Positions 14,501 through 64,000 of a stretch of DNA of 64,000 nt are shown in pieces. A model generated the notes under the pieces. That model saw only the letters and a program-made list of their open reading frames with translations. It had not been told where the DNA came from and did no database searches. A program made the position numbers and the translations under genes. Every line of letters starts with the position of its first letter. Position 1 is the first letter of the stretch. This DNA is from Anolis carolinensis. Taxonomy: Eukaryota. The stretch is taken from the NCBI RefSeq assembly GCF_035594765.1, contig NW_026943822.1:2446992-2510991 (forward strand), written 5' to 3'.

Positions 14501-17500
14501 TGGCAGAATTGACCTCTTGAATTAGGTAACAACAACAACAACAACAACAACAATAATAATGTATAATTATATAATGCTAGCTGTGCCCGGCCACGCGTTG
14601 CTGTGGCGAAGTCTGGTGGTATGGGAAATAAAGTACAGTAGAGTCTCACTTATCCAACACTCGCTTATCCAACGTTCTGGATTATCCAAGGCATTTTTGT
14701 AGTCAATGTTTCCAATATATCGTGATATTTTGGTTCTAAATTCATAAATACAGTAATTACTACATAGCATTACTGCGTATTGAACTACTTTTTCTGCCAA
14801 ATTTGTTGTATACATGATGTTTTGGTGCTTAATTTGTAAAATCATATCCTAATTTGGTGTTTAATAGGCTTTTCCTTAATGCCTCCTTATTATCCAACAT
14901 ATTCGCTTATCCAACATTCTGCCGGCCCGTTTATGTTGGATAAGTGAGACTCTACTGAGCAATTGGTGGTAGTTAGGGTAAAGGGTAAAGGTTTTCCCCT
15001 GACATTAAGTCCATTATAAATGGGTTCTATAGCTGTGTGGAAGGGCCTTGAGTCTACACTGCCATATAATCCAGTTAAAATCTGATCATCTGTATTTTGT
15101 AGGCAGTGTGGAAGAGGCCTAAGTGAGGCCTAACTCTGCCTGTCCCCTGGGCTGAGTGGGTTGCTAGGAGACCAAGTGAGCGGAGCTTAGCCTTGTAACT
15201 GGCAGCAATGGGCTAAAAACAATTATTCTTCTCCCTGTAATTAGGACTTTATATTTCTTTTCTTTTTGTTGTATGAACGCAGAGGCATGGATGAGGGGTT
15301 GTGCTGCCAAGTTTAGTGTTTCTGGGATGTGTAGTTTTGTTGTTTTGTCCTAGGCCGAAATTTCATTACCCTTTTATATATATAGATATAAATATAATAT
15401 AATAATATATAAATATAATAATGTAAATTTTATGTATGTATGTATGCATACATGTATGTATGTATGTATGTATGGAGCCCCGGTGCGTTAAAGCATTGAG
15501 CTGGAGACCGAAAGGTCCCAGGTTCAATCCCCGGGAGCGAAGTGAGCGCCCGCTGTTAGCCCCAGCTCCTGCCAACCTAGCAGTTCGAAAACATGCCAAT
15601 GTGAGTAGATCAATAGGTACTGCTCCGGCGGGAAGGTAACGGCGCTCCATGCAGTCATTCTTGCCACATGACCTTGGGAGGTGTCTATGGACAACGCCGG
15701 CTCTTCGGCTTAGAAATGGAGATGAACACCAACCTCCGGAGTCGGACACGACTGGGCTTAACGTCAGGGGAAATGTGAGTAGATCAATAGGTGCTGCTCC
15801 AGCGGGAAGGTAATGGTGCTGCATGAAGTCATGCCAATGGCCACATGACCTGGAGATGTCTACGGACAACGCCGGCTCTTCAGCTTAGAAATGGAGATGA
15901 GCACCAACCCCCAGAGTCAGACATGACTGGACTTAACATCAGGGGAAAACCTTTTAACCTATGTATGCATGTGTGTGTATATAAAAAGGTAAAGGTAAAA
16001 AGGCATGACTGCATGGAGCGCTGTTACCTTCCCATCGGAGCGGTACCTATTGATCTACTCACATTGTCCGTAGACACCTCCAAGGTCATGTGGCCACTGG
16101 CATGACTGCATGGAGTGCCGTTACCTTCCCATCGGAGCAGTACCTATTGATCTACTCGCATTGTCCGTAGACACCTCCAAGGTCATGTGGCCACTGGCAT
16201 GACTGCATGGAGCGCGGTTACCTTCCCATCGGAGCAGTACCTATTGATCTACTCGCATTGTCCATAGACACCTCCAAGGTCATGTGGCCACTGGCATGAC
16301 TGCATGGAGCGCGGTTACCTTCCCATCGGAGCGGTACCTATTGATCTACTCGCATTGTCCGTAGACACCTCCAAAGTCATGTGGCCACTGGCATGACTGC
16401 ATGGAGCGCGGTTACCATCCCATCGGAGCAGTACCTATTGATCTACTCGCATTGTCCGTAGACACCTCCAAGGTCATGTGGCCACTGGCATGACTGCATG
16501 GAGCGCGGTTACCTTCCCATTGGAGCGGTACCTATTGATCTACTCATATTGTCCGTAGACACCTCCAAAGTCATGTGGCCACTGGCATGACTGCATGGAG
16601 CGCGGTTACCTTCCCATCGGAGCGGTACCTATTGATCTACTCGCATTGTCCGTAGACACCTCCAAAGTCATGTGGCCACTGGCATGACTGCATGGAGCGC
16701 GGTTACCATCCCATCGGAGCAGTACCTATTGATCTACTCGCATTGTCCGTAGACACCTCCAAGGTCATGTGGCCACTGGCATGACTGCATGGAGCGCTGT
16801 TACCTTCCCATCGGAGCGGTACCTATTGATCTACTCACATTGTCCATAGACACCTCCAAGGTCATGTGGCACTGGCATGACTGCATGGAGCGCTGTTACC
16901 TTCCCATCGGAGCAGTACCTATTGATCTACTCGCATTGTCCGTAGACACCTCCAAGGTCATGTGGCCACTGGCATGACTGCATGGAGCGCGGTTACCATC
17001 CCATCGGAGCGGTACCTATTGATCTACTCACATTGTCCATAGACACCTCCAAGGTCATGTGGCACTGGCATGACTGCATGGAGCGCTGTTACCTTCCCAT
17101 CGGAGCGGTACCTATTGATCTACTCACATTGTCCGTAGACACCTCCAAAGTCATGTGGCCACTGGCATGACTGCATGGAGCGCTGTTACCTTCCCATCGG
17201 AGTGGTACCTATTGATCTACTCGCATTGTCCGTAGACACCTCCAAAGTCATGTGGCCACTGGCATGACTGCATGGAGCGCGGTTACCATCCCATCGGAGC
17301 AGTACCTATTGATCTACTCGCATTGTCCGTAGACACCTCCAAGGTCATGTGGCCACTGGCATGACTGCATGGAGCGCTGTTACCTTCCCATCGGAGTGGT
17401 ACCTATTGATCTACTCACATTGTCCGTAGACACCTCCAAAGTCATGTGGCCACTGGCATGACTGCATGGAGCGCGGTTACCATCCCATCGGAGCGGTACC

Positions 17501-19581
17501 TATTGATCTACTCACATTGTCCGTAGACACCTCCAAAGTCATGTGGCCACTGGCATGACTGCATGGAGCGCTGTTACCTTCCCATCGGAGCGGTACCTAT
17601 TGATCTACTCACATTGTCCGTAGACACCTCCAAGGTCATGTGGCCACTGGCATGACTGCATGGAGCGCTGTTACCTTCCCATCGGAGCGGTACCTATTGA
17701 TCTACTCACATTGTCCATAGACACCTCCAAGGTCATGTGGCCACTGGCATGACTGCATGGAGCGCGGTTACCATCCCATCGGAGCGGTACCTATTGATCT
17801 ACTCACATTGTCCATAGACACCTCCAAGGTCATGTGGCACTGGCATGACTGCATGGAGCGCTGTTACCTTCCCATCGGAGTGGTACCTATTGATCTACTC
17901 ATATTGTCCGTAGACACCTCCAAGGTCATGTGGCCACTGGCATGACTGCATGGAGCGCGGTTACCATCCCATCGGAGCGGTACCTTTTGATCTACTTGCA
18001 TTGTCCGTAGACACCTCCAAGGTCATGTGGCCACTGGCATGACCGCATGGAGCGCCGTTACCTTCCCGCCGGAACAGTACCTATTGCTCTACTCACATTG
18101 GCATGTTTTCGAACTGCTAGGTTTGCAGAAGCTGGAGCTAACAGCAGACGCTCACTCTGCTCCCCGGATTCAAACCTGTGACCTTTCAGTCCGCAAGTTC
18201 GGCAGCTCAGCACTTTAACACGCTGCACCACGGGGGGCTATGATTCTAGCTGCTCACAAATGAACCAAGGGCGCATGGGCTCCTTGCTTCCCTCCCAGGC
18301 CTTTGGAGACCGTTCCCTGTCAGCATCCCATGTTCTCAATGCTGGACTACAGTTCCCATCACTCTTGCTGCTGGTGGGCCTTTTTGGGCACCCAAATGGG
18401 AGTCCAGCATGGGATCTGATGCAGCCAGGCCTTCACAGAAATAATAAACCATTAAGTGTAAGAGAAGGAGCTGCGTGCCTGAGTCAATTAGCGGAGAGGC
18501 TAATCCCCGGGATCTCTCTCTCTCTCTCTCTTGCGGGGCAGATCATGGCCGTAATCCGCACGTGGGGCCTGGCACCCGACCCTTGAGGGCGGCAGGGGAC
18601 TCCGCGTTGTGGGAAGGAGGTCAATGCTGCAGGGTCAGGTGGGAAGAAGGAAAAGCGGACCAGAAAGAAGGCAGGAAGGAGACCCCAAGAAGGGGCTGAA
18701 GTTTCAGAAGAAAGTTTTCAGAAATGGGTCATGCAGGCCTGGGCAAACTTCAGCCCTCTGGGTGTTTTGGACTCTAACTCCCACAATTCCTAACAGCCGG
18801 TAGGCTGTTAGGAATTGTGGGAGTTGGAGTCCAAAACACCCAGAGGGCTGCAGTTTGCCCAGGCCTGGGTGATAGTATTTCCAGGCAAAGTAATATGTAC
18901 ACTAACAAGATAGATATGCTGGATTTCGTATCAAAAAATCACAAGTCAAACACTTCCCAAGTGTCTAGGACTGTGTGATGTATTTTCGGATGATGCGCGC
19001 AGATCCCAGCAGGGTGGCCTTTTGCAGTTGGCAGATCGTAATTTTGTCAGTGTCTATTGTTTCCAAATGCCGGCTGAGATCTTTTGGCACGGCACCCAGT
19101 GTGCCCATCACCACCGGGACCACCTGCACTGGTTTCTGCCAGAGTCTTTGCAGTTCAATCTTGATGTCCTGATAGCGGCTGAGTTTTTCCTGTTGTTTTT
19201 CGTCAATGCGACTGTCACCTGGGATGGCGACATCAATGATCCAAACCTTTTTCTTTTCCACCACTGTGATGTCTGGTGTGTTGTGTTCCAGAACTTTGTC
19301 AGCCTGGATTCGGAAGTCCCACAGTATCTTTGCATGCTCATTTTCCAAGACTTTTGCAGGTTTGTGATCCCACCAGTTCTTTGCTGCTGGGAGGTGGCAC
19401 TTGAGGCATACGTTCCAATGAATCATTTGGACCACATAGTTGTGCCTCTGTTTGTAGTCTGTCTGTGCAATTTTCTTACAGCAGCTGAGGGTATGATCAA
19501 TGGTTTCGTCAGTTTCCTTGCACAGTCTGCATTTTGGGTCATCAGCTGATTTTTATAATAATAATAATAATAATAATAATA

Positions 19582-31024: not shown

Positions 31025-34000
31025 TTATGGGGCAGAAACCTCTGGCTGCAAAGGGGAGAGCAAAGGGTGCGAATCCAGCCGGCTTTGCAGCCACCCAAAA
31101 GCCCGCCGTGGTCATGCCGAGATCATTGGCGCCAGTGGGGATTGGCACCAGAGGTTGCCTCTCCTGCCTCCAAGAGGATGGGGGGTGATGCCATGGGGCC
31201 CCTCCCTTTGCCCAGGCGACTAACCTGAGGGCCGTGAGCCCCGGGCGTGGCTGGGGAGTCCTCTTGGAGGGCCGGGCTGGACCCCTTCTGTTCCCTTTGC
31301 TTCCTGGCCAACTTGGAGAGCTCAGCGTGGATGGTCTGCAGAAGGGGCAGAAAACAAGAAGAATACAATCTCTGAGGACACCTGCCATAGATGTGGGCGA
31401 AACGTCGGGAGAGAATACTTCTGGAACATGGCCATACAACCCGGAAAATATACAACAACTCTGTGATCCTGGCCGTGAAAGCCTTCGACAACACAAGCTG
31501 AAGTGAGTTACTTGGCAAATCCAACTCAAGGTGTTAGTAGTGCTCGACAAAGCCCTACTAGTTTGAAACCCAACTTTCTTGGTTCTGAACTCCCAGGGAT
31601 TTACGACTAGGCGTGGGAAGACACTATGAAATTCGCAAGGTCTTAGAATAATAGAGTTGGAAGAGACCTCGCAGGCCATCCAGTCCAACCCCATTCTGCC
31701 AAGAAGCAGGAAATCGTATTCAAAGCACCCCTGACAGTTCTGCGAAGGCAAGGTTGGGTGATGGCTGAATTCCCTTGCATGGAAACAAGGCATGTTTTTA
31801 GTCCTAGTTGTGATGATTTAACTCTGGCACTGGATGCCATACCAAGATAATCTCACCCCAACACTTGCCCTGAATCCTGTATTCAATTTGTAACTGGATG
31901 ATTGACCAAACCCAAAAGGTGCTCATCAATGGGTCTTCTTTATCCTGGAGAAAAGGGACGAATGGGGGGCCACAGGGTTCTTTTCTAGGCCCGGTGCAAT
32001 CCAACATTTTTATAGATGACTTTCTATGATGGAATAGAAGGCTTGCCAGAGTGAGTGACCCTTTGCTAGCCTTCCTGGAGGACAGGCAGGGAGTGTCAGG
32101 GTATTGTGTATTGTGAAATGTTAAAATCAATCTGGGTTCTTAGAAATGCCTTATGTGTTAGTTCTTCGGCAAGGCATTTCAGCAGTTATGGAGTTAATGA
32201 GAGTCTGCTATGATTAATGTATCACAGGACCAATGGGGTCAAGTTTGTTTTGACCGGGACTTACTTTCTTGTTCCTGTGGAATGCAGAGGAGTTTCCTGA
32301 GCAGTGTGTGTGTGTGTGCATGAGTCGCTTCGGCAAGAGCACTCGTGGAGGAAAGGACTGATTTGCTCTGTTTGTATATAGTCATGTAAATAAAGATATA
32401 TTGCCGTTGGATTTCCAACCGAACCCTCGTCTGCTGGAGTGTGTTTGTCCAGTGCTGTTTTTCCACACGGGGAGACAGTCTGGAGAAGGAGGTGAAGACC
32501 GGGATGGTGAATTTTTGGATTTCACTCTGCTACCCATCATCCCCTGACAGGGAGGGCACGGTCCCCCAGTTCCATGGATGGAGGGGGGAGCAGCGGAAGA
32601 AGGGGTCCCTTCGCCCCAATCCTTCACCTGCCCTACAGGCCCAGGGCGCTCTGGATTCCCTGCCGCCGCCCTCCTCACCTTTGTGGCCGGGTCCAGGTGG
32701 AGGGCCCGCTTCAGGACCGCCATGGCCGCCTGGTCCTCCCCCTGCTCAGACAGCAGCTGCAAGGAAGACAGCACAGGGATGAGGATGAGAAAGATGTCCG
32801 TTTATTTATATCCCACTTCTCCTCTCCACAACGGAGGCTCAAAGTGGCTACAGAGAAAACTCAACATTATGGGGATCTCAAAATTATAAATAATAATAAT
32901 AACAATAACAAGACGACCGCAGTACAAACTAGAGCTGACAGCTAGCACAACAAAACATTACATGGGAAGTTCCTTGACAAAATTGAAGGAAAAGCTGACA
33001 AGGAGAAGACCTGGCTCTGGCTCACGAATGGGACCCTGAAGAAGGAGACAGAAGGCCTGATCCTTGTAGCCCAGGAGCAAGCCATCAGAACAAAGGCAAT
33101 TAAGGCCAAGATCGAAAAATCAACTGATGACCCAAAATGCAGACTGTGCAAGTAATATTACATTTAATGTATAATATATATGTTATTAGATTGTATTATT
33201 ATTAGTATAATATTATATTACATTATAACATTATTATCAATATTATATGTATATAATATTTGCACTTTTTACCTTTGTGAATTTGATATAGACAAAGGGT
33301 CTATTCCCATCCCAATTTGCACTTCCAAGAATTTGCAGCACTTTTATCAGTCACATCGTGTTTACAATATTTATATGGTGCACCTTACCCATTCTACTTT
33401 TACAAACTCTCCGTTTTAATCCATGTTTTTATTAGCTCTTGTCATTTGTTTTTATTGGCTAATGTTTAAATTTTTATAATTGTGCATGTCTCTTGTCTAT
33501 TGTTGTGTTTTATATTGCTATTGTTTTTATTCGGGCTCGGCCTCATGTAAGCCTCCCTGAGTCCCCTTTGGGGAGATAGAAGCAGGGAATAAAAATAAAG
33601 TTCTTCTTATTCTTACTTCTTATCCTTCTTCTTCTTATTATTATAATATACAATATATTATATATTTATAAATTATTGTATCTATATATATGTGTTCTGA
33701 CCGTTTTTACCTTAAAATAAACAAAGAATCTACAACACCCAGAACCACAAAATTAAACAACACAACCCAACACCCTTGCGGCTGGGTTTAAACAACTAAG
33801 CCACAATTCAAATCAAGATCTGTCGCCCACACAAACCCAAACACACACAAAAAAGATGTGTGCTTGTATTACATATATATGTATATAAAATTAGCATAGC
33901 ATGTTGCTATTGGCACAGGAGACAAGATGGAACTATCCGTTGGATTTTTGGTTGTGTGTATATGAAATGTAAATCAAGTGTTTCTGCTGTTTTGCAAGTG

Positions 34001-37000
34001 TGTTTCAGCAATGAAACAGTTAACAGCAGGCCAGTTTGACTGATAGCCTGCTGTGACCTATGAGACATGATTTCCGGCCTTGGAGGTCGGAACTTCCTTC
34101 GGACTAAGGAATGTGTTTTCTTATCTCTCTGTTGTACTGTGGGAGACGAGACGAGCAGAAGAATGCCGGCTTCTAGCGATGGGATTTGCTAATTGTAAAT
34201 ATCTCTGTAAATATTAAATAGATGTTTGAACTTCAGATGTCTTTGTCTGACATTGGAGGAATTGGTGAGGGCAGAAGTTCACCAATTCGTCAAGGTGATG
34301 GTCCGGAGCACGATTGATCGATGGTTTTGAAGAAACCCACCAACGCGCACCCTGAACCTGGCTCTGCATTATGACATGATCTTCCTGGCTCTCAGGTTGG
34401 TATAAAGTTATTCAATTCTATTCTATGCCGGCCCTACCTTGCCTTTCCGGAAGAGTGCCTTGACATTGTCGGGGTCCAGCTGCAGGACCCGGTCGCAGGA
34501 CCCCAGGGCCTCCTCCGGCTGCTGCAGCTTCATCTGTGCAGCCGCAGAGTTGTTGAGGCATTTGAGCTCCAGGTCTCGCTGCTCCTCTTCCTCCTCGGGG
34601 CTCAGGGTGCCTGCGGAAGGGCCGCACAAGGGCCTCACCCCCAGGCAGGCAGAGGCCTGGCCAGGAGCCCCCCACTCATCTCCAGGCTTTGGGGTCTGAG
34701 CTACCTCCCTTCCTTCCAATGTGCCAAAGCTCAACTGCCTCTGAAGAGCCCAGATCTTGGGACCTAGTTAGGCTGGGGCCTAGTGTTTCAGGTCCCAGGG
34801 GCCTCACCTTCCCCTGGCAAGAGCAGCAGCTGTAGGGCCTCCTGGTAGCAGCGCAGGGCCCGCTGGAAGTCCTCCCTCTCGAAGTGGAAGTTGCCCCACT
34901 CCCGCCGACGGTTGCACAGTCCGAAGCGCTCTGAGGCGGTCAAGAGAGCCGGATTGGGACCATCCTGCACCTGCAGCAGGGTCACCTCATAGAGCAGAGT
35001 GGCGTTGGGGGGAATGTCAGGCTCCCTGCAGAGGAGGAGGAGGAGGAAGAACGTGTTTGGGGTGGTCCATTGATTCCACCCCCAGCCCCTTCTTCCCTGG
35101 ACAAAAGGGCCTTACCTGCCCAGAGAGCCATAGGCACAGGTTGGGCTGACCAGAAAAAGGGCGACCTCTCCCACCTGCATGGAGGGGACAGCAAGCTCCA
35201 GGGCCTGAGGAAGAGGAGGAGAAGGGTCAAGGGGAGGGAGAGCAGCCACGAGCCCAGCCCCGGGAGGCCCCCTTCGTAGCCGTTGCCCCCACAGGCTGTG
35301 CAAAGGCTGTGGTCCAAAGACCAGCAGATACACCACTGAGAGGATGCCCAAAACACGGGAGGGCCAAGAGGCCTGTTATTTGAAAACAACTGCACCCAGT
35401 CTCCGGACACATATCCTTTTGGAAATAAACGGCAGTCATAACCTTGTGGAAAAGGGAAATGATGTCATACCCGTTTGGCAAATGTGAATCTCCATGAACA
35501 TGTGGAGACCACCTTTTGAAAACCTCTAGTCAAGAAAAGCATGACCTTATTAGATGTCAATTCTTTGAACAAGTGATATTCATAAGCATTCATGTAATGG
35601 CACACAGGTAACTCCGCTGTTAAACTGTCTTTGAACAGCCAAGGATAAAAACATGCCACTACAGAGGATGGATAGCAGAGGAGGGTTATACAGTAGAGTC
35701 TCATTTATCCAACACTCGCTTATCCAACGTTCTGGATTATCCAACGCATTTTTGTAGTCAATGTTTTCAATACATCATGATATTTTGGTACTAAATTCGT
35801 AAATACAGTAATTACAACATAACATTACTGCGTATTGAACCGCTTTTTCTGTCAAATTTGTTGTGTAACATGATGTTTTGGTGCTTAATTTGTAAAATCA
35901 TAACGTAATTTGATGTTTAATAGGCTTTTCCTTAATCCCTCCTTATTATCCAACATATTCACTTATCCAACATTCTGCCGGCCCGTTTATGTTGGATAAG
36001 TGAGAGTCTACTGTAGCTGAAATTGCAGTTGTAATTGTAATTGCAGTTGGACTTGTCCAGAACATATACACTCCCCTTTAAAAAACCTTTTAAAGTATGC
36101 ACTCAGAGGGTTGTTGTATGTTTTCCAGGCTGTCTGGCCATGTTCTAGAAGTATTCTCTCCTGACATTTCGCCGACATCTATGGCAGGCATCCTCAGAGG
36201 TTGTGAGGTATGGAGAAACTATATATTAAACTTATATTTACCTTCCTTGCTTAGTTTCTCCATACCTCACAACCTCTGAGGATGCCTGCCATAGATGTGG
36301 GCAAAACGTCAGGAGAGAATACTTCTAGAACATGGCCATACAGCCCGGAAAACATACAACAACCCTGTGATCCTGGCCATGAAAGCCTTCGACAACACAT
36401 ATGTACTCAGAGATAAAAAGAAGCCTTTTTTGAAAAATAACACATCTTGTTTACTCATAAGCATTTCGTATTACTTCACCATACAGGCACATCTCTTATT
36501 GAAGTTTAGTTACAGATAGGATGTAGTTCTCTGTGTGTTTAGTACACAGGGTATCATTCTTAATCAATAGTTCATAGTTTTTAGGTATAGCTGTACTCAC
36601 TGAAGTCCATAAGTGCAAACAGCAACATGCATCAGCTTGTTGCATCATACTAAGGTGTGATGCAAACATGCATCTACCTCCACCAAGGCAAAAATGGGCA
36701 TGATCAAAAACAAAGATGGCAAGGACCTAACAGAAGCTGAAGAGACCAAGAAAAGGTGGTGAGAATATACAGAAGATCTGTATAGGAAGGATAATAATAT
36801 AGAGGATAGCTTTGATGGTATGGTGAGTGAATTAGAACCAGACATCCTGAGGAGTGAGGTTGAATGGGCCTTAAGAAGCATTGCTAATAACAAGGCAGCA
36901 GGAGAGGACGGGATCCCAGCTGACCTGTTTAAAATCTTGAAAGATGATGCTGTCAAGGTGATGCATGCCAAATGCCAGCAAATATGGAAAACACAAGATT

Positions 37001-37968
37001 GGCCATCAGATTGGAAAAAATCAATTTACATCCCCATACCAAAAAAGGGAAATGCTAAAGAATGCTCAAACTTCCGTACAGTGGCACTTATTTCACACGC
37101 CAGTAAGGTAATGCTCAGGATCCTGCAAGGAAGACTCCAGCAAGACATGGAGTGAGAGGTGTAAAGCAGACTGACTAAAAAATTGAGTCCCGAGTCTGAA
37201 CATGCTCAGTATAATCACGTCTATAACACCTGTTAAAGAGGTGCAGTCAAACTGGCAAATTAACATATACATAGAATACAGGTTAGCAAATATATATGTT
37301 AACAAATAAATAGTGCAAGGTTTGGGAGGTTGCGATTTCCAATGCCTGTGGCCATCTGCCACCTCCTCATCCGCCCCCGTCCTTCTTGTATTCAGAGGCT
37401 CACGCTCACCTGGATGGCCTCCCATTGGCCCAGGACGAAGGTCAGCCGGGGGTCCCTCTCCACCAGGCTCCCGTCCTCCAAGGCGCCCAGCAGCTTCACG
37501 GCCATTTCCTGCCCCGCCTGCGGCCGGCTACCATGGCCCTGCTTCACCAGGCACTTCCTCAGGCACTTCCCTTCTGGGGGGCAAAGGGAGTGGGTCAGAA
37601 AAGTCATATGTAGAAGAGCCCCCCACCCATCCCCTCCATCCCCCACTATACTCACCAGCAAGGTCCTCCCAGTCACCCGCCTCCCACAGCGCCTGGAAGC
37701 TTCCGTTGGGGCCCATCAGGTGCTCCAGGCGCCGGTAGAAGGCCCTCTCCTCTTGCTGGGGGGCAGGCGCTGGGATGGAGGTGTGGGGCAGAGAGAACTG
37801 GACCCTGCGGGGCAGGCGGGGGCTGCTTCGGGACCCCGGACCCCCACGGGGTGATAGCGAAGGTGGAGGTGAAGGTGGCAGGGGCGAGGTGAGCCCCGTC
37901 CCGGCTTCTTCTCCCACCTCTGACGGGCCCCGCGGCCCCTCCGGCATCAGCCGGCGGTCCCCCTCCAT
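31025..37968 (-). CDS. FKBP8-like FKBP-type PPIase/TPR protein, about 388 aa; exons 37968-37656, 37573-37410, 35204-35116, 35025-34808, 34610-34438, 32756-32679, 31335-31225 and 31045-31025 (last exon tentative)
   Basis: FKBP domain (..[75 protein letters not shown]) and TPRs ([41 protein letters not shown]) closely parallel FKBP8. Introns are GT-AG and in phase. Confidence 0.88.
32094..32549 (+). mobile_element. Solo LTR in the FKBP8-like gene intron 6
   Basis: TGTCAG...CTGACA termini, 5-bp TSD GGGAG and an internal AATAAA. Confidence 0.85.
36105..36400. mobile_element. Inverted pair of Penelope terminal repeats with degenerate hammerhead motifs
   Basis: About 36105-36221 is reverse-complementary to about 36252-36366. 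Confidence 0.75.
36665..37155 (+). mobile_element. RTE/BovB LINE internal fragment
   Basis: [63 protein letters not shown]. Confidence 0.9.
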
Positions 37969-40374: not shown

Positions 40375-50445
<10,071 letters not shown>

Positions 50446-56672: not shown

Positions 56673-59494
56673 TCAGCCCAGGAGGCGCAAGGCGGCCATG
56701 GCGGAGAAGCCCAGCAGCAGGGCCAGGACTCTGGGCAGCCGTCCGGGGGCCATGGAAGGGGAGTGCAGCTCCTGGGGAAGGACCTCCAGGAAGGTGATGT
56801 AGAGGAAGGTCCCTGCAGCCACGCCTTGGAGGACGCTGCGCACCCCGCTCTCGGGGGACGGGGAAGAGGGGTCCTGGAGGGTGAGAACAAGGCCCAGGCC
56901 CAAGCCCAGCGGGGAGGCCAGGGCGAAGGCCGTCAAGGCAACCAAGGCCCAGCGCAGGGGCAGCCGGCTCTGCGCCAAGAGCAGCAAGGACAGGCTGAGC
57001 GCCATGGCCGCCTTGTGCAGCAGGACGGCCCCCGCCAGGCGCAGCAGCCTGGCCGCCGACTCCTGCAGCCCCAGCGCCAGGCCCTCGAAGGTCGAGTGCA
57101 GGCACAGAGAGAGGGTCAGCACCAGCGCACGGAACGGGGAGGACGATGAAAGGGGCACGTCGGACTCAGGGTCCGATAAGAGTGGCTCAGAGGCTGCATC
57201 GGGGCCCGGACCCCCCTCGCTGCAGTCTAGCAGGACGTGCTCCACCACCAACACCAGCAGGAAGCCCAGCGCCAGGATCAGCTCCGGAAGAGGGAAGTCT
57301 GGCTGCAGAAAGGAAAGAAGGAAGGGCATCAGGCCATGCTGGGAGACTCAGCCCACAGCGTCCAAGTTGTGGCTCTTCCCAATAGGCTTCTCATTATTAT
57401 TATTACTAGCTGTGCCCGACCACATGTTGCTGTGGCAAAGTGTGGTGGTGTGGGAAATAAAGTACAGTAGAGTCTCACTTATCCAGCATTCGCTTATCCA
57501 AGACATTTTTGTAGTCAATGTTTTCAATACATCATGATATTTTGGTGCTAAATTCGTAAATACAGTTATTACTACATAGCATTAATGTGTAATGATCTTT
57601 TTCTGTCAAATTTGTTGTATAACATGATGTTTTGGTGCTTCATTTGTAAAATCATAACTTAATTTGACGTTTAATAGGCTTTTCCTTAATCCCTCCTTAA
57701 TCCAATGTTCTGCCGGCCCGTTTATGTTGGATAAGTGAGACTCTACTGTATATATACATACAATAAAAGATAAAGGTTTCCCCTGACGTTAAGTCCAGTC
57801 GTGTCTGACTCTGGGGGTTGGTGCTCATCTCCATTTCTAAGTCAAAGTGCCGGCGTTGTCCATAGACACCTCCAAGGTCATGTGGCCACTGGCATGACTG
57901 CATGGAGCGCCGTTACCTTCCTGCCGGAGCGGTACCTATTGATCTACTCACATTTGCATGTTTTCAAACTGCTAGGTTGGCAGGAGCTGGGGCTAACAGC
58001 GGGCGCTCATTCCGCTCCCGGGATTTGAACCTGGGACCTTTCGGTCTGCAAGTTCAGCAGCTGAGCGTTTTAACACACTGCGCCACCACATACATGCTAT
58101 ATATATAAAAGGGTAATGAAATTTCGGCCTAGGACAAAACAACAAAACTACACATCCCAGAAACACTAAAGTTGGCAGCACAACCCCTCATCCATGCCTC
58201 TACGTTCATACAACAAAAAGCTCCAGCTACTCCAGAAAACGGCCAGGCTTTGAGATTGCAAAGCTATTCTCTGCTATTCCACCTGGCCAACAAAGGATTC
58301 CCATAAGCCACAGCAACGTGTGGCCAGGCACAGCTTGTATATTATATTAAATGACTATATTGCAATATTATTAGTAATATTGCATGTAATATAAATATTC
58401 AATTATAATAGTGAATTACAGTAGAGTCTCACTTATCCAAGCTAAACGGGCCAGCAGAACGTTGGATAAGCGAATATGTTGGATAATAAGGAGGGATTAA
58501 GGAAAAGCCTATTAAACATCAAATTAGGTTATGATTTTAAAAATTAAGCACCGAAACATGTTATACAACAAATTCAACAGAAAAAGTAGTTCAATACGCA
58601 GCAATGTTATGTTGTAACTACTGTATTTACGAATTTAGCACCAAAATATCACAATGTATTGAAAACATTGACCACAAAATGGGTTGGATAATCCAGAACA
58701 TTGGATAAGCAAGTGTTGGATAAGTGAGACTCTACTGTATATATTATAATATTATAAATTATTGAAAATTATATTTTATATATATGTATATTTATTTATT
58801 TGCAACCTTTATATCCCGCCCTTTTCACCCCGAAGGGGACTCAGGGTGGTTTACAAGTATATATACATACAATTTATTGTATTAAATGACTATATTGCAC
58901 TATTATTAGCAATATTGCATGTAATATAAATATATAATTATAGTGAATTATAATTATTATTACATCATAATATAATATAGTATGCACACACACACACACA
59001 CACATATATATATACACACATATACACATATATACATATATGTATATATAATTAGCAAAGCATGTTACTGGTGGGAGGGGCCTTCAGTTGGAGCAAGGAG
59101 ATGCGGGCGAAACATGATGAGATGCGGGCGAAACGTCAGGAGAGAATGCTTCTGGAACATGTTCACAGGAAAGTCCCCTTCCCAAGCAGGGAGAGATCAT
59201 TACGAGATGGTGCTCCTGTGGTTTGCCCGCCTTTCTTACCGAGAGGCGCGGGGTCTGGAGGCGGAGGTCTTCGAGGGAGTCCGGCACGATGTCCAGGAGG
59301 CAGGCGGCCAGGAAGACCCCTCCGGCGGCGCAGCTGAGCAGGCCCCGGATCCCCGCCCCGGCGCTTGGGGAGGCTTGGAGGCGGCGGCGGAGGAGGATTG
59401 CGGCCGGGAGGATCCCGCAGAGCAGCGGGACGAGGGCCAGCGCCACCAGGCAGCCCGCCTTGAGGCCCAGCAGCGGCGGAGCGACCCCCGCCAT
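56673..59494 (-). CDS. SLC39A/ZIP subfamily II zinc transporter (ZIP1-like), 294 aa; exons 59494-59240 and 57302-56673
   Basis: LSCAAGGVFLAACLLD, FPLPELILALGFLLVLVVEH, TM4 LSLCLHSTFEGLALG, TM5 LLHK, and QGVAAGTFLYITFLEVLPQEL. Phase-0 GT-AG intron. AATAAA on minus at 56598-56603. Confidence 0.9.
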
Positions 59495-59573
59495 CGACCC
59501 CTCCCCGTCCCTTCCCGCCGGCAACAACAACACTGCGGAAGCCCCGCCCGCCCCGCCGCGTTTCAAGCCTGGC

Positions 59574-60322
59574 GCCACGTGACTCCTGCCGGGCTCCCAT
59601 TGGGCGGCAGTGCGAGGGGGCGTGGCTTCCCCGGCAGATTCTGCTTCACTGCTGATCCTGACTCAGAGGCGGCAGGGGCATCACGTGACCCAGCGGGGCT
59701 CCCATTGGGCCGCTGTCTGAGAGGCGGGGCCTTCTAGGTTTGGGGGCGGGGCTTGCAAGCGGACTCTGCCCGGCGGATGACCCTGAGTCAGAGGCGGCAG
59801 GGGCAGCGCCTTCCGCGTCACGTGACCCAGCGGGGCTCCCATTGGGCCGCTGTCTGAGAGGCGGGGCCTTCTAGGTTTGGGGGCGGGGCTTGCAAGCGGA
59901 CTCTGCCCGGCGGATGACCCTGAGTCTGAGGCGGCAGGGGCAGCGCCTTCCGCGTCACGTGACCCAGCGGGGCTCCCATTGGGCCGCTGTCTGAGAGGCG
60001 GGGCCTTCTAGGTTTGGGGGCGGGGCTTGCAAGCGGACTCTGCCCGGCGGATGACCCTGAGTCAGAGGCGGCAGGGGCAGCGCCTTCCGCGTCACGTGAC
60101 CCAGCGGGGCTCCCATTGGGCCGCTGTCTGAGAGGCGGGGCCTTCTAGGTTTGGGGGCGGGGCTTGCAAGCGGACTCTGCCCGGCGGATGACCCTGAGTC
60201 AGAGGCGGCAGGGGCAGCGCCTTCCGCGTCACGTGACCCAGCGGGGCTCCCATTGGGCTGCTGTCCGAGAGGCGGGGCTTCTAGGATTGGGGGCGGGGCT
60301 TGCAACCGGACTCTGAGTCAAA
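59574..60322. repeat. 137-bp GC-rich tandem repeat (4 full units plus partial/degenerate units) forming the ZIP gene promoter
   Basis: TCACGTGAC recurs at 59681, 59818, 59955, 60092 and 60229 (period 137). A degenerate unit starts near 59575. Confidence 0.95.
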
Positions 60323-60739
60323 GACTCAAGGCGCCTGGCAGCTTCCTCTTTCTGAAGGGGCTTCTGCGGCCTCGTGACCTTCAGGCTGGTCGAGGTCAGC
60401 ATAATAATAATTTATTTATTTACAGTACAGTAGAGTCTCATTTATCCAACGTTCTGGATTATCCAACGCATTTTTGTAGTCAATGTTTTCAATACATCAT
60501 GATATTTCGGTGCTAAATTCGTAAATATAGTAATTACTACATAGCATTACTTCGTATTGAACTACTTTTTCTGTCAAATTTGTTGTATAACATGATGTTT
60601 TGGCGCTTAATTTGTAAAATCATAACCTAATATGATGTTTAATAGGCTTTTCCTTAATCCCTCCGTATTATCCAACATATTCGCTTATCTAACGTTCTTC
60701 CGGCCCGTTTATGTTGGATAACTGAGACTCTACTGTATT

Positions 60740-61410
60740 TATATTCTGCCCTTCTCACTCCAAAAGGGACTCAGGGCGGATCACATTGTACACATATAAG
60801 GCAAAAATTCAATGCCATAGAAACATAGAACAGAGACAGAGACCGACACAGAGGCAATTTAAACTTCTCCAGCTTCCTGAGGGGATGCTTGATTCCGGCC
60901 GCAGGGGGAGCAGCTGCTTCATCATCCACTGTGATGGCAACTTCCTCATTACAAAGGCGGCTGGATGATTTTTATGGTGTTGTAAATTAGCCTCCCCACA
61001 TATAAGTGGTACCTAAATTTCCTACTTGATAGATGCAACTATCTTTCGGGTTGCTTAGGTCAACAACGAGCAGGGGATATTTTTTATTTTAATTGTCAGG
61101 TGCTTGAACTCATGATCTCTTGGTCAGAGTGATTTATTGCAGCTGGCTGCTAACCAGTCCGCACCACAGCCCGATTCCTCTTTCTGAATTGTCGGGTGCT
61201 CACCCCGACACGGGCTGGCCTGAAATTCATGATCTCTTGGTCAGAGTGATTTATTGCAGCTGGCTGCTAACCAGTCCGCACCACAGCCCGATTCCTCTTT
61301 CTGAATTGTCGGGTGCTCACCCCGACACGGGCTGGCCTGAAATTCATGATCTCTTGGTCAAAGTGATTTATTGCAGCTGGCTGCTAACCAGCTTGCGCCA
61401 CAGCCTGGCC
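60740..61410 (-). mobile_element. SINE with a 120-bp internal tandem repeat (about 61104-61410); related copies at about 6250-6480, 21355-21705, 28685-28920 and 38880-39347
   Basis: TCATGATCTCTTGGTCAGAGTGATTTATTGCAGC recurs at about 61109, 61227 and 61345. Confidence 0.7.
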
Positions 61411-62294
61411 CCTCTTTCCAAAGGGGCTACTCCAGCCTCGTGACCTTTAGGCTGGTCAAGGTCAGAATAATAATAATAGTGACTCTATGTTGATATCCCG
61501 CTACCACCTATCTCCCCAAAAGGACTCGGGGAGGCTTACAAGCGGGACAAGCCCAACAACAACTGTTAACAACTGTAATACAATATCATACTAATAATAC
61601 AATATAATAAAATTAATTATATATTATATATTACATGTAATATTATTAATAATATTACAATATATAGATATAGTATAATATGGTAATTTATTGCCAGTAT
61701 TGTGCTATGCTAATAATATAATATTGTATGTAAATTTAATTTGTAAGCCGCTCTGAGTCTCCTTCGGGGTGAGAAGGGCGGCATATAAATGTATTAAATA
61801 AATAAATAAATATGGTAAAGATAAAGGTTTCCCCTGATATTAAGTCCAGTCGTGTCCAACACTGGGGGTTGGTGCTCATCTCCATTTCTAAGCTGAAGAG
61901 CCGGCGTTGTCCGTAGACACCTCCAAAGTCATGTGGTCATTGGCATGACTGCATGGAGCGCTGTTACCTTCCCACTGGAGCAGTACTTATTGATCTACTC
62001 ACACTCTGGGGGTTGGTGCTCATCTCCATTTCTAAGCCAAAGAGCTGGCATTGTCCGTAGAGACCTCCAAGGTCATGTGGCCATTGGCATGAATGCATGG
62101 AGCGCTGTTACCTTCCCGCCGGAGCGGTACCTATTGATCTACTCACATTTGCATGTTTTCGAGCTGCTAGGGAAGGCAAGAAAGACTCAGAGGCACAAAC
62201 AAGGCAGTTGCAACGTTGAGGCTTTATGGAGAGCTGCGCTTAAAGAAATTAGGGCCTCAAGGCTGCTTCCAGGCCCAGGCTCCCGGGGGTCGGC

Positions 62295-64000
<1,706 letters not shown>

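Follow-up and report, generated by a model that had tools for sequence, protein, structure and literature searches.

Stacked copies of a promoter block upstream of a ZIP1-like zinc transporter gene in Anolis carolinensis

In Anolis carolinensis, the promoter block upstream of a ZIP1-like zinc transporter gene is present as six head-to-tail copies (u0-u5) on the minus strand of the window, the whole 64-kb stretch of DNA analyzed here. The reading favored here, with a confidence somewhat above even, is that these are stacked copies of the gene's own promoter, in which the extra copies would act as saturating activator sites of modest effect and the newest would be near-neutral and variable in number.

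Copy boundaries were set by cutting at CACGTGAC, which yields the six copies; TRF places the array at 59681-60315 with a period of 137, 4.6 copies, and 98% matches. The features, from the gene outward, are:

59495..59575, minus strand: single-copy proximal promoter and 5' leader, covered by an RNA contig; GC boxes at 59544 and 59548, ETS-like CGGAAG at 59536
59576..59681, minus strand: u0, the older, diverged 106-bp copy nearest the gene, which the spliced X19 RNA contig covers up to 59675; read along the gene it carries AP-1 (59659), a GT/GC box (59618), CCAAT (59599), and E-box GTCACGTGG (59576), with no antioxidant response element (ARE)
59682..59818, minus strand: u1, young 137-bp unit with AP-1, two GC boxes, CCAAT, and E-box, matched in X14 and X17 by a loop contig of 167 bp
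Within 59682..59818, minus strand: ARE-like 11-mer of u1, overlapping the E-box
59819..59955, minus strand: u2, young unit with its AP-1 site destroyed by an inner SNV
59956..60092, minus strand: u3, young unit with the same sequence as u1
60093..60229, minus strand: u4, young unit with the same sequence as u1
60230..60320, minus strand: u5, distal truncated copy with AP-1 at 60314 intact

The units u1-u4 are near-identical, with 1 difference in 548 bp; u1, u3, and u4 share one sequence, and u2 departs from it by the single base that removes its AP-1 site, the only inner SNV of the array. In u0, 82 of 104 columns aligned with u1 are identical (about 79%; 22 differences), and it is missing a 12-bp spacer as well as the 21-bp block in which the second GC box lies. 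The distal u5 matches at 94% over 87 bp and has lost 17 bp while keeping its AP-1 site. Divergence among the copies falls into strata of 21%, about 6%, and 0.2%, and the presence of head-to-tail units of at least 10 bp beside a gene start makes the array a promoter minisatellite. A sequence-only reading of the same DNA had described a near-identical 137-bp repeat starting 80 bp upstream of the ATG and amplified about 5-fold. The repeat and its amplification stand, with four full units and a truncated fifth, but it is the older u0 that begins at 80 bp, the near-identical array beginning 187 bp upstream of the ATG. That reading overlooked u0, along with an upstream ATG and a high local background of tandem arrays, both considered below. 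Its proposal of a recent promoter tandem amplification is borne out by the divergence strata and by a joint found in two independent runs.

Four of 24 listed sequencing runs, none of the 24 being on record as RNA, were mapped against 59165-59818, three from the same species (X14, X17, and X19) and one from another organism (X21). In both X14 and X17, a flank contig ends at 59710 and a 167-bp contig runs over 59681-59817 and returns to 59681-59710, opening and closing with the same 30-mer; one of these two runs is listed as DNA and the other is likely Hi-C. The head-to-tail joint is thus present in two of the three same-species runs, the third providing an RNA contig, and its occurrence in two independent runs shows that the duplication is not the assembly artefact that had been named as a possible refutation. 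The joint demonstrates duplication and not a count of four, no read spanning four young units having been seen; the 167-bp loop would form from one young unit too, because u5 opens with the same 30-mer, and depth alone suggests more. Loop and flank depths are 8.9 and 4.67 in X14 and 197.2 and 107.8 in X17, a ratio of 1.8-1.9 versus about 4 expected; contig depth is, by the tool's own statement, no copy number, and X14 is shallow. In positional simulations at X14 depth (3000 per genotype and read length, reads of 100 or 150, GC and PCR bias ignored), the ratio was no higher than 1.91 for a 4+4 genotype in 0-0.8% of cases and no lower than 1.91 for a 1+1 genotype in 1.3-4.4%. These values hint that a haplotype holds about two young units, not four, and there is a weak hint that the array is a VNTR with copy number varying between animals.

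The depth of about two in X14 and X17, the identity of u1, u3, and u4, and the absence of the u2 SNV from both runs would also fit a real duplication in which the allele carries just one or two young units and the assembly has inflated them to four. This is considered very unlikely: assemblers tend to collapse repeats, not expand them, the whole array is just 635 bp, and the runs likely come from other animals, X14 and the window disagreeing at two positions in the flank. The X14 letters that differ are at 59398 (T>C) and 59640 (T>G), with one contig at a depth below 5, and may be alleles or errors. In X17, GATC is inserted at two of the four GATC sites in the stretch and a loose end lies at a third. 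The insertions were rejected as alleles, being located at GATC sites and resembling ligation joints; X17 looks like a restriction-ligation library, so its depth would be uneven. X21 has no contigs over the array region, which is no proof of absence.

The gene downstream of the array and its neighbors are:

59240..59494, minus strand: the coding part of ZIP1-like exon 1, with 85 codons (Pfam Zip at E 1e-7; splice donor in the RNA contig)
56673..57302, minus strand: ZIP1-like exon 2, 209 codons and stop (100% to NCBI 'zinc transporter ZIP1-like [Anolis carolinensis]')
62295..62411, minus strand: last coding exon of CKMT1, the upstream neighbor on the same strand (E 4.7e-15, ubiquitous mitochondrial creatine kinase)
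41480..50445, minus strand: part of PDIA3, the downstream neighbor (exon 41480-41650, E 2.5e-35)

The identification of this gene as a ZIP zinc transporter is upheld by a Pfam Zip domain and by the NCBI-named ZIP1-like protein. The two exons comprise 294 codons, and the Zip match is to PF02535 (E 2.7e-38). The NCBI protein matched by exon 2 has 294 aa, and the A. sagrei protein is 89% identical. Residues H154, E158, H181, and K182, which we take to be transport-site residues, are invariant in 20 of 20 aligned proteins; together with the Zip domain, the intact frame, and spliced RNA, they place the gene in the ZIP (SLC39) family, ZIP1/2/3 type. A cytosolic loop at about 57170-57200 carries an acidic-PLL word that reads DAASEPLL in this anole, most squamates having DEASxPLL. 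The word resembles a dileucine sorting signal, with an anole spacing that misfits strict [DE]xxxLL; the anole ZIP loop is without histidines.

In a tree built from 32 of the 135 proteins fetched, mammalian rows left out, the squamate proteins join turtle (99/100) and amphibian (92/94) ZIP1-like proteins, and bird ZIP1 stands apart on a long branch flagged by the tree tool. The ZIP1-like transporter evolved faster in anoles: the branch of the Anolis pair is 0.61 versus 0.19 for Sceloporus, and the A. carolinensis tip is five times as long as the A. sagrei tip (0.13 versus 0.026). Human SLC39A1 is presumably located elsewhere, not between CKMT1 and PDIA3, and the human CKMT1A-PDIA3 interval presumably holds no ZIP gene; the lizard ZIP1-like gene is therefore likely a paralogue of SLC39A1. 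The gene run at 3974-50445 resembles human 15q15.3, with genes beside PDIA3 that we take from their translations to be MFAP1-, HYPK-, and SERINC4-like, plus an FKBP/TPR-like gene near 32400-37700. A metagenome scan returned 54 loci whose best segments are 24-46% identical, except for one at 69% (L052) that holds internal ZIP exons only. The E-box/CCAAT pattern found in 2 of the 54 was taken as chance.

The X19 contig joins exon 1 (59494-59240) to exon 2 (57302-56673) at the exact predicted splice sites and extends to 59675, covering u0 and leaving 7 bp between its end and the u1 E-box; X19 is a single run, taken as RNA by guess though it is spliced, and contigs cannot show a transcription start. 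One further feature lies within the region that it covers:

59598..59600, minus strand: upstream ATG in the CCAAT box of u0, from which an out-of-frame ORF of 158 codons starts on the spliced RNA

This ORF overlaps the ZIP coding sequence and ends 371 nt past the main ATG. The context of the upstream ATG is no weaker than that of the main ATG, both having a pyrimidine at -3 and G at +4, and an RNA as long as the X19 contig includes the ATG at 59600. Transcription starts upstream of 59600 would be expected to give less transporter per transcript. A similar ATG is present in every young unit, with a frame of 19 or 53 codons.

Four classes of motif recur through the array. Perfect GTCACGTGAC lies where it had been reported, at 59817, 59954, 60091, and 60228; all four are in young units, 323-743 bp above the ATG, and the E-boxes nearer the gene are TCACGTGAC at 59681 and GTCACGTGG at 59576. 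The core GTCACGTG occurs 10 times in the 64-kb window, always within 59576-60237, against 0.56 expected (the copies are not independent). The CCAAT box is on the sense (minus) strand in 6 of 6 copies. Of the two GC boxes attributed to each unit, GGGGCGGGG is found in all five young copies, accompanied by a second, imperfect box, GAGGCGGGG. TGA(C/G)TCA is at 59659, 59784, 60058, 60195, and 60314 and gone from u2, in agreement with the description of TGAGTCA as usual in the unit. The metal-response element TGCRCNC is indeed absent from 59480-60420, an uninformative absence in that the pattern is present in just 24% of shuffles; patterns for ERSE, SRE, CRE, UPRE, TATA, MRE, and ZTRE also found no match in that interval.

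Among 20,000 dinucleotide shuffles of one unit, none contained GTCACGTGAC and none all four motif classes; the motifs were chosen after inspection, and the shuffles demonstrate promoter-like content and nothing beyond. Predicted factor sites are intact in the units, as in functional promoter repeats, by sequence match only, and GTCACGTGAC stands near the gene start as in genes of the CLEAR network. The units have an observed/expected CpG of 0.70, with 12 CpG each, a richness that would fit unmethylated, open DNA. One strand of the unit is G-rich, with a G4Hunter maximum of 1.84 (a value of 1.5 is reached by 1.2% of window 25-mers), and the canonical G3-N1-7 quadruplex pattern is not found in it. 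A hairpin was rejected (z = +1.25; 184 of 200 shuffles fold equally well), as was a coding role for the array, in which stops break the frames in every unit, the exceptions being ATG frames of 53 codons and stretches of 108-138 aa from stop to stop.

The proposed link to NRF2 is not supported. The overlapping GTGAC-CCA-GC word is present in the five young copies, as reported, but absent from the proximal u0. The extended NRF2 ARE consensus is TMAnnRTGAYnnnGCR, and the array does not match it. An NRF2 antioxidant response element was rejected on these grounds and on the sharing of the word's first five bases with the E-box, of which the ARE-like word looks like a by-product.

Short tandem amplification is common in this region. 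TRF finds six other tandem arrays with periods of 97-209 bp in the 64-kb window, all six matching dispersed repeats elsewhere in the window; the promoter unit matches none, so that it is the one of seven arrays not made of a dispersed repeat and, being unmatched elsewhere in the window, is not a SINE-derived satellite. Given the six other arrays, a recent expansion needs no selection. At 16002-18100, a 97-bp unit from part of a dispersed repeat is present 21.7 times at 95%, probably a SINE-derived satellite. The CKMT1-ZIP interval has two arrays from dispersed repeats, at 61110-61405 (117 bp x 2.5) and 61862-62147 (144 bp x 2). A 67-bp element at 60345-60411, just above u5, recurs at 61411-61477 with 88% identity, has no further copy in the window, and holds an E-box-like GGTCACGAGG on the minus strand. 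The green anole has abundant satellites of SINE origin whose unit measures 145 nt (PMC10702118). In snakes, promoter-like features are reported to affect recombination, more strongly on macro- than on microchromosomes (10.1101/2023.07.11.548536), and recombination at a CpG-island promoter is a possible driver of the array.

The old duplication offers a view of what has been kept. The E-box, CCAAT box, GC/GT box, and AP-1 site are all retained in both u0 and u1 despite the 22 differences in 104 columns, and the three changes that fall in motif columns keep the consensus (T/C in the E-box flank, GC to GT box, TGAG to TGAC). When 22 substitutions were placed at random, all four motifs survived in 73 of 100,000 trials. 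In a clustering-aware control, four random words of the same lengths had no more than two mismatches in 6% of placements, and a plain Fisher test of motif against other columns (26/29 versus 56/75) gave p = 0.075. Survival of the motifs gives moderate support for constraint on both copies, and the persistence of four motif classes between old and young copies suggests that the array unit is a working promoter module.

It is unlikely that the promoter consists of u0 and the leader alone, with the upstream copies a neutral minisatellite of no measurable effect. The high local rate of tandem arrays, the value of about 0.06 from the clustering-aware control, and the end of the X19 contig before u1 (one run, and not a start) are what such a by-product would predict. 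It fits less well with motifs that are kept in both old lineages and across the u5 deletion, with the CpG richness that may mark open DNA, and with the position of u1-u5, which at 190-820 bp from the ATG are within ordinary promoter range.

The factors that would bind can be proposed from the motifs. TFEB and TFE3 bind GTCACGTGAC, known as the CLEAR element (PMC7815692; consensus also PMC12087643), and USF2 binds GTCACGTG, competes with TFEB at CLEAR motifs, and represses in fed cells (PMC11436898; PMC12087643). More sites could therefore mean more repression as well as induction. As for the suggested tie to MiT/TFE factors, USF fits the E-box equally, so that MiT/TFE is one of two equal candidates between which the motif itself cannot choose, and the link to lysosome or pigment cells is a conjecture. 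In human promoters, NF-Y, SP1, and FOS form a recurring trio, and promoter classes of NF-Y and USF are described as almost mutually exclusive in human cells (PMC6238301), which makes the array module not a plain textbook type.

Under the favored reading, the array was likely built up from the gene's own GC-rich promoter block through slippage or unequal exchange, in three or more steps: an old duplication of a working block, a second duplication, and then the recent amplification. The E-boxes may be occupied by USF1/2 routinely or by TFEB/TFE3/MITF in starvation and lysosomal stress, the CCAAT boxes by NF-Y, the GC boxes by Sp/KLF factors, and the AP-1 sites by AP-1. The extra copies would likely supply further activator sites whose effect saturates and is modest, and the newest copies likely near-neutral and variable in number. 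Transcription would start mostly in or just below u0; transcripts from above 59600 would carry the out-of-frame ATG and yield less protein each, so that output would rise less than copy number. The suggested tuning of zinc-transporter dosage is thus a candidate effect, and base rates from other promoter repeats favor small ones: in fungi, 4.3% of the tested relations between promoter tandem repeats and expression, covering 143 promoter repeats (PMC3516485), and in humans, more than 100 of 4849 promoter tandem repeats acting on expression (PMC4857002). Both sets are likely made up mostly of short units and so may understate the effect of a whole-module repeat.

Selection for copy number itself has been weighed as an alternative to this modest role. 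MiT/TFE or USF factors would strongly raise ZIP1-like expression through the number of perfect CLEAR sites, and alleles would be selected for an advantage in metal uptake or in lysosome or pigment-cell zinc. All four young units carry the perfect 10-bp CLEAR site where u0 has only GTCACGTGG, the array is alone among the seven in the window in its origin, and precedents exist in cyp51A TR34/TR46 (PMC9239056), TaALMT1 (PMC6480313), and the USF1 repeats of TYMS (PMC7712088). Such a dial is nevertheless improbable, in view of the low base rates (PMC3516485; PMC4857002), the upstream ATG that would blunt output, and the AP-1 site already lost from u2; the long Anolis branch fits relaxed constraint as well as adaptation. 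In mouse lung, zinc carried by SLC39A1 activates TFEB/TFE3/MITF, which makes a feedback loop conceivable and would favor the dial; the same study puts MiT/TFE downstream of SLC39A1, which counts against it, and its available text shows no CLEAR site in the SLC39A1 promoter (PMC13324142). A full circuit, in which zinc would activate MiT/TFE, the amplified CLEAR sites would raise the transporter, one to four or more units segregating in wild anoles would set the loop gain, and the upstream ORF would cap it, is a long shot.

If copy number varies, wild anoles would offer a ready-made allelic series of zero to four young units of a four-factor promoter block, including one unit with a dead AP-1 site and the old diverged copy. 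With such a series, the dependence of promoter output on the number of complete modules could be measured directly, and the array would be a candidate cis-variant affecting how a model lizard handles zinc. The locus also draws attention to a probable ZIP paralogue that is unstudied and has perfect CLEAR sites. Should the copies do nothing, the array is one more among many short tandem arrays in the anole genome. Among the literature matches listed, with supplements outside the search, no paper treats this gene or array.

Several known systems resemble the anole array in part. The 43-bp CBF/NF-Y minisatellite upstream of human ABO is a distal enhancer; it is likewise a vertebrate repeat with a CCAAT box per unit, but its unit is short and its place distal, whereas the anole unit is a whole proximal module. 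The TSER unit of human TYMS is 28 bp long with essentially one site, in contrast to the 137 bp and four motif classes of the anole unit. TSER is likewise a promoter-proximal repeat with a USF-type E-box per unit, and single-base changes within its units alter the number of working sites, as in anole u2 (PMC7712088). Its polymorphism and effect are established, whereas in the anole polymorphism is hinted at and the effect is a candidate.

The TR34 and TR46 repeats of Aspergillus fumigatus cyp51A also repeat in tandem a block of the gene's own promoter that has sites for two or more factors, and their proximal and distal copies can act differently; unlike the anole array they are fungal and short, with known drug selection and proven overexpression (PMC9239056). 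Wheat TaALMT1 similarly has duplicated or triplicated promoter copies before a metal-linked membrane transporter, but in a plant, where they are associated with high expression and aluminium tolerance (PMC6480313); a comparable role for the anole array is a candidate. Promoters of the CLEAR network share the perfect GTCACGTGAC near the gene start (PMC7815692; PMC11436898; PMC12087643); the anole sites, unlike those, are predicted and have been multiplied by tandem amplification. The squamate satellite sSat1Aca is found in the same genome with a similar unit (145 nt) in few-copy arrays, and the promoter array probably shares its mutational process, the difference being that the anole unit derives from a gene promoter and sSat1Aca from a SINE (PMC10702118). 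The array thus adds another example to the known promoter-repeat type, one made distinctive by its long four-factor unit and its visible strata.
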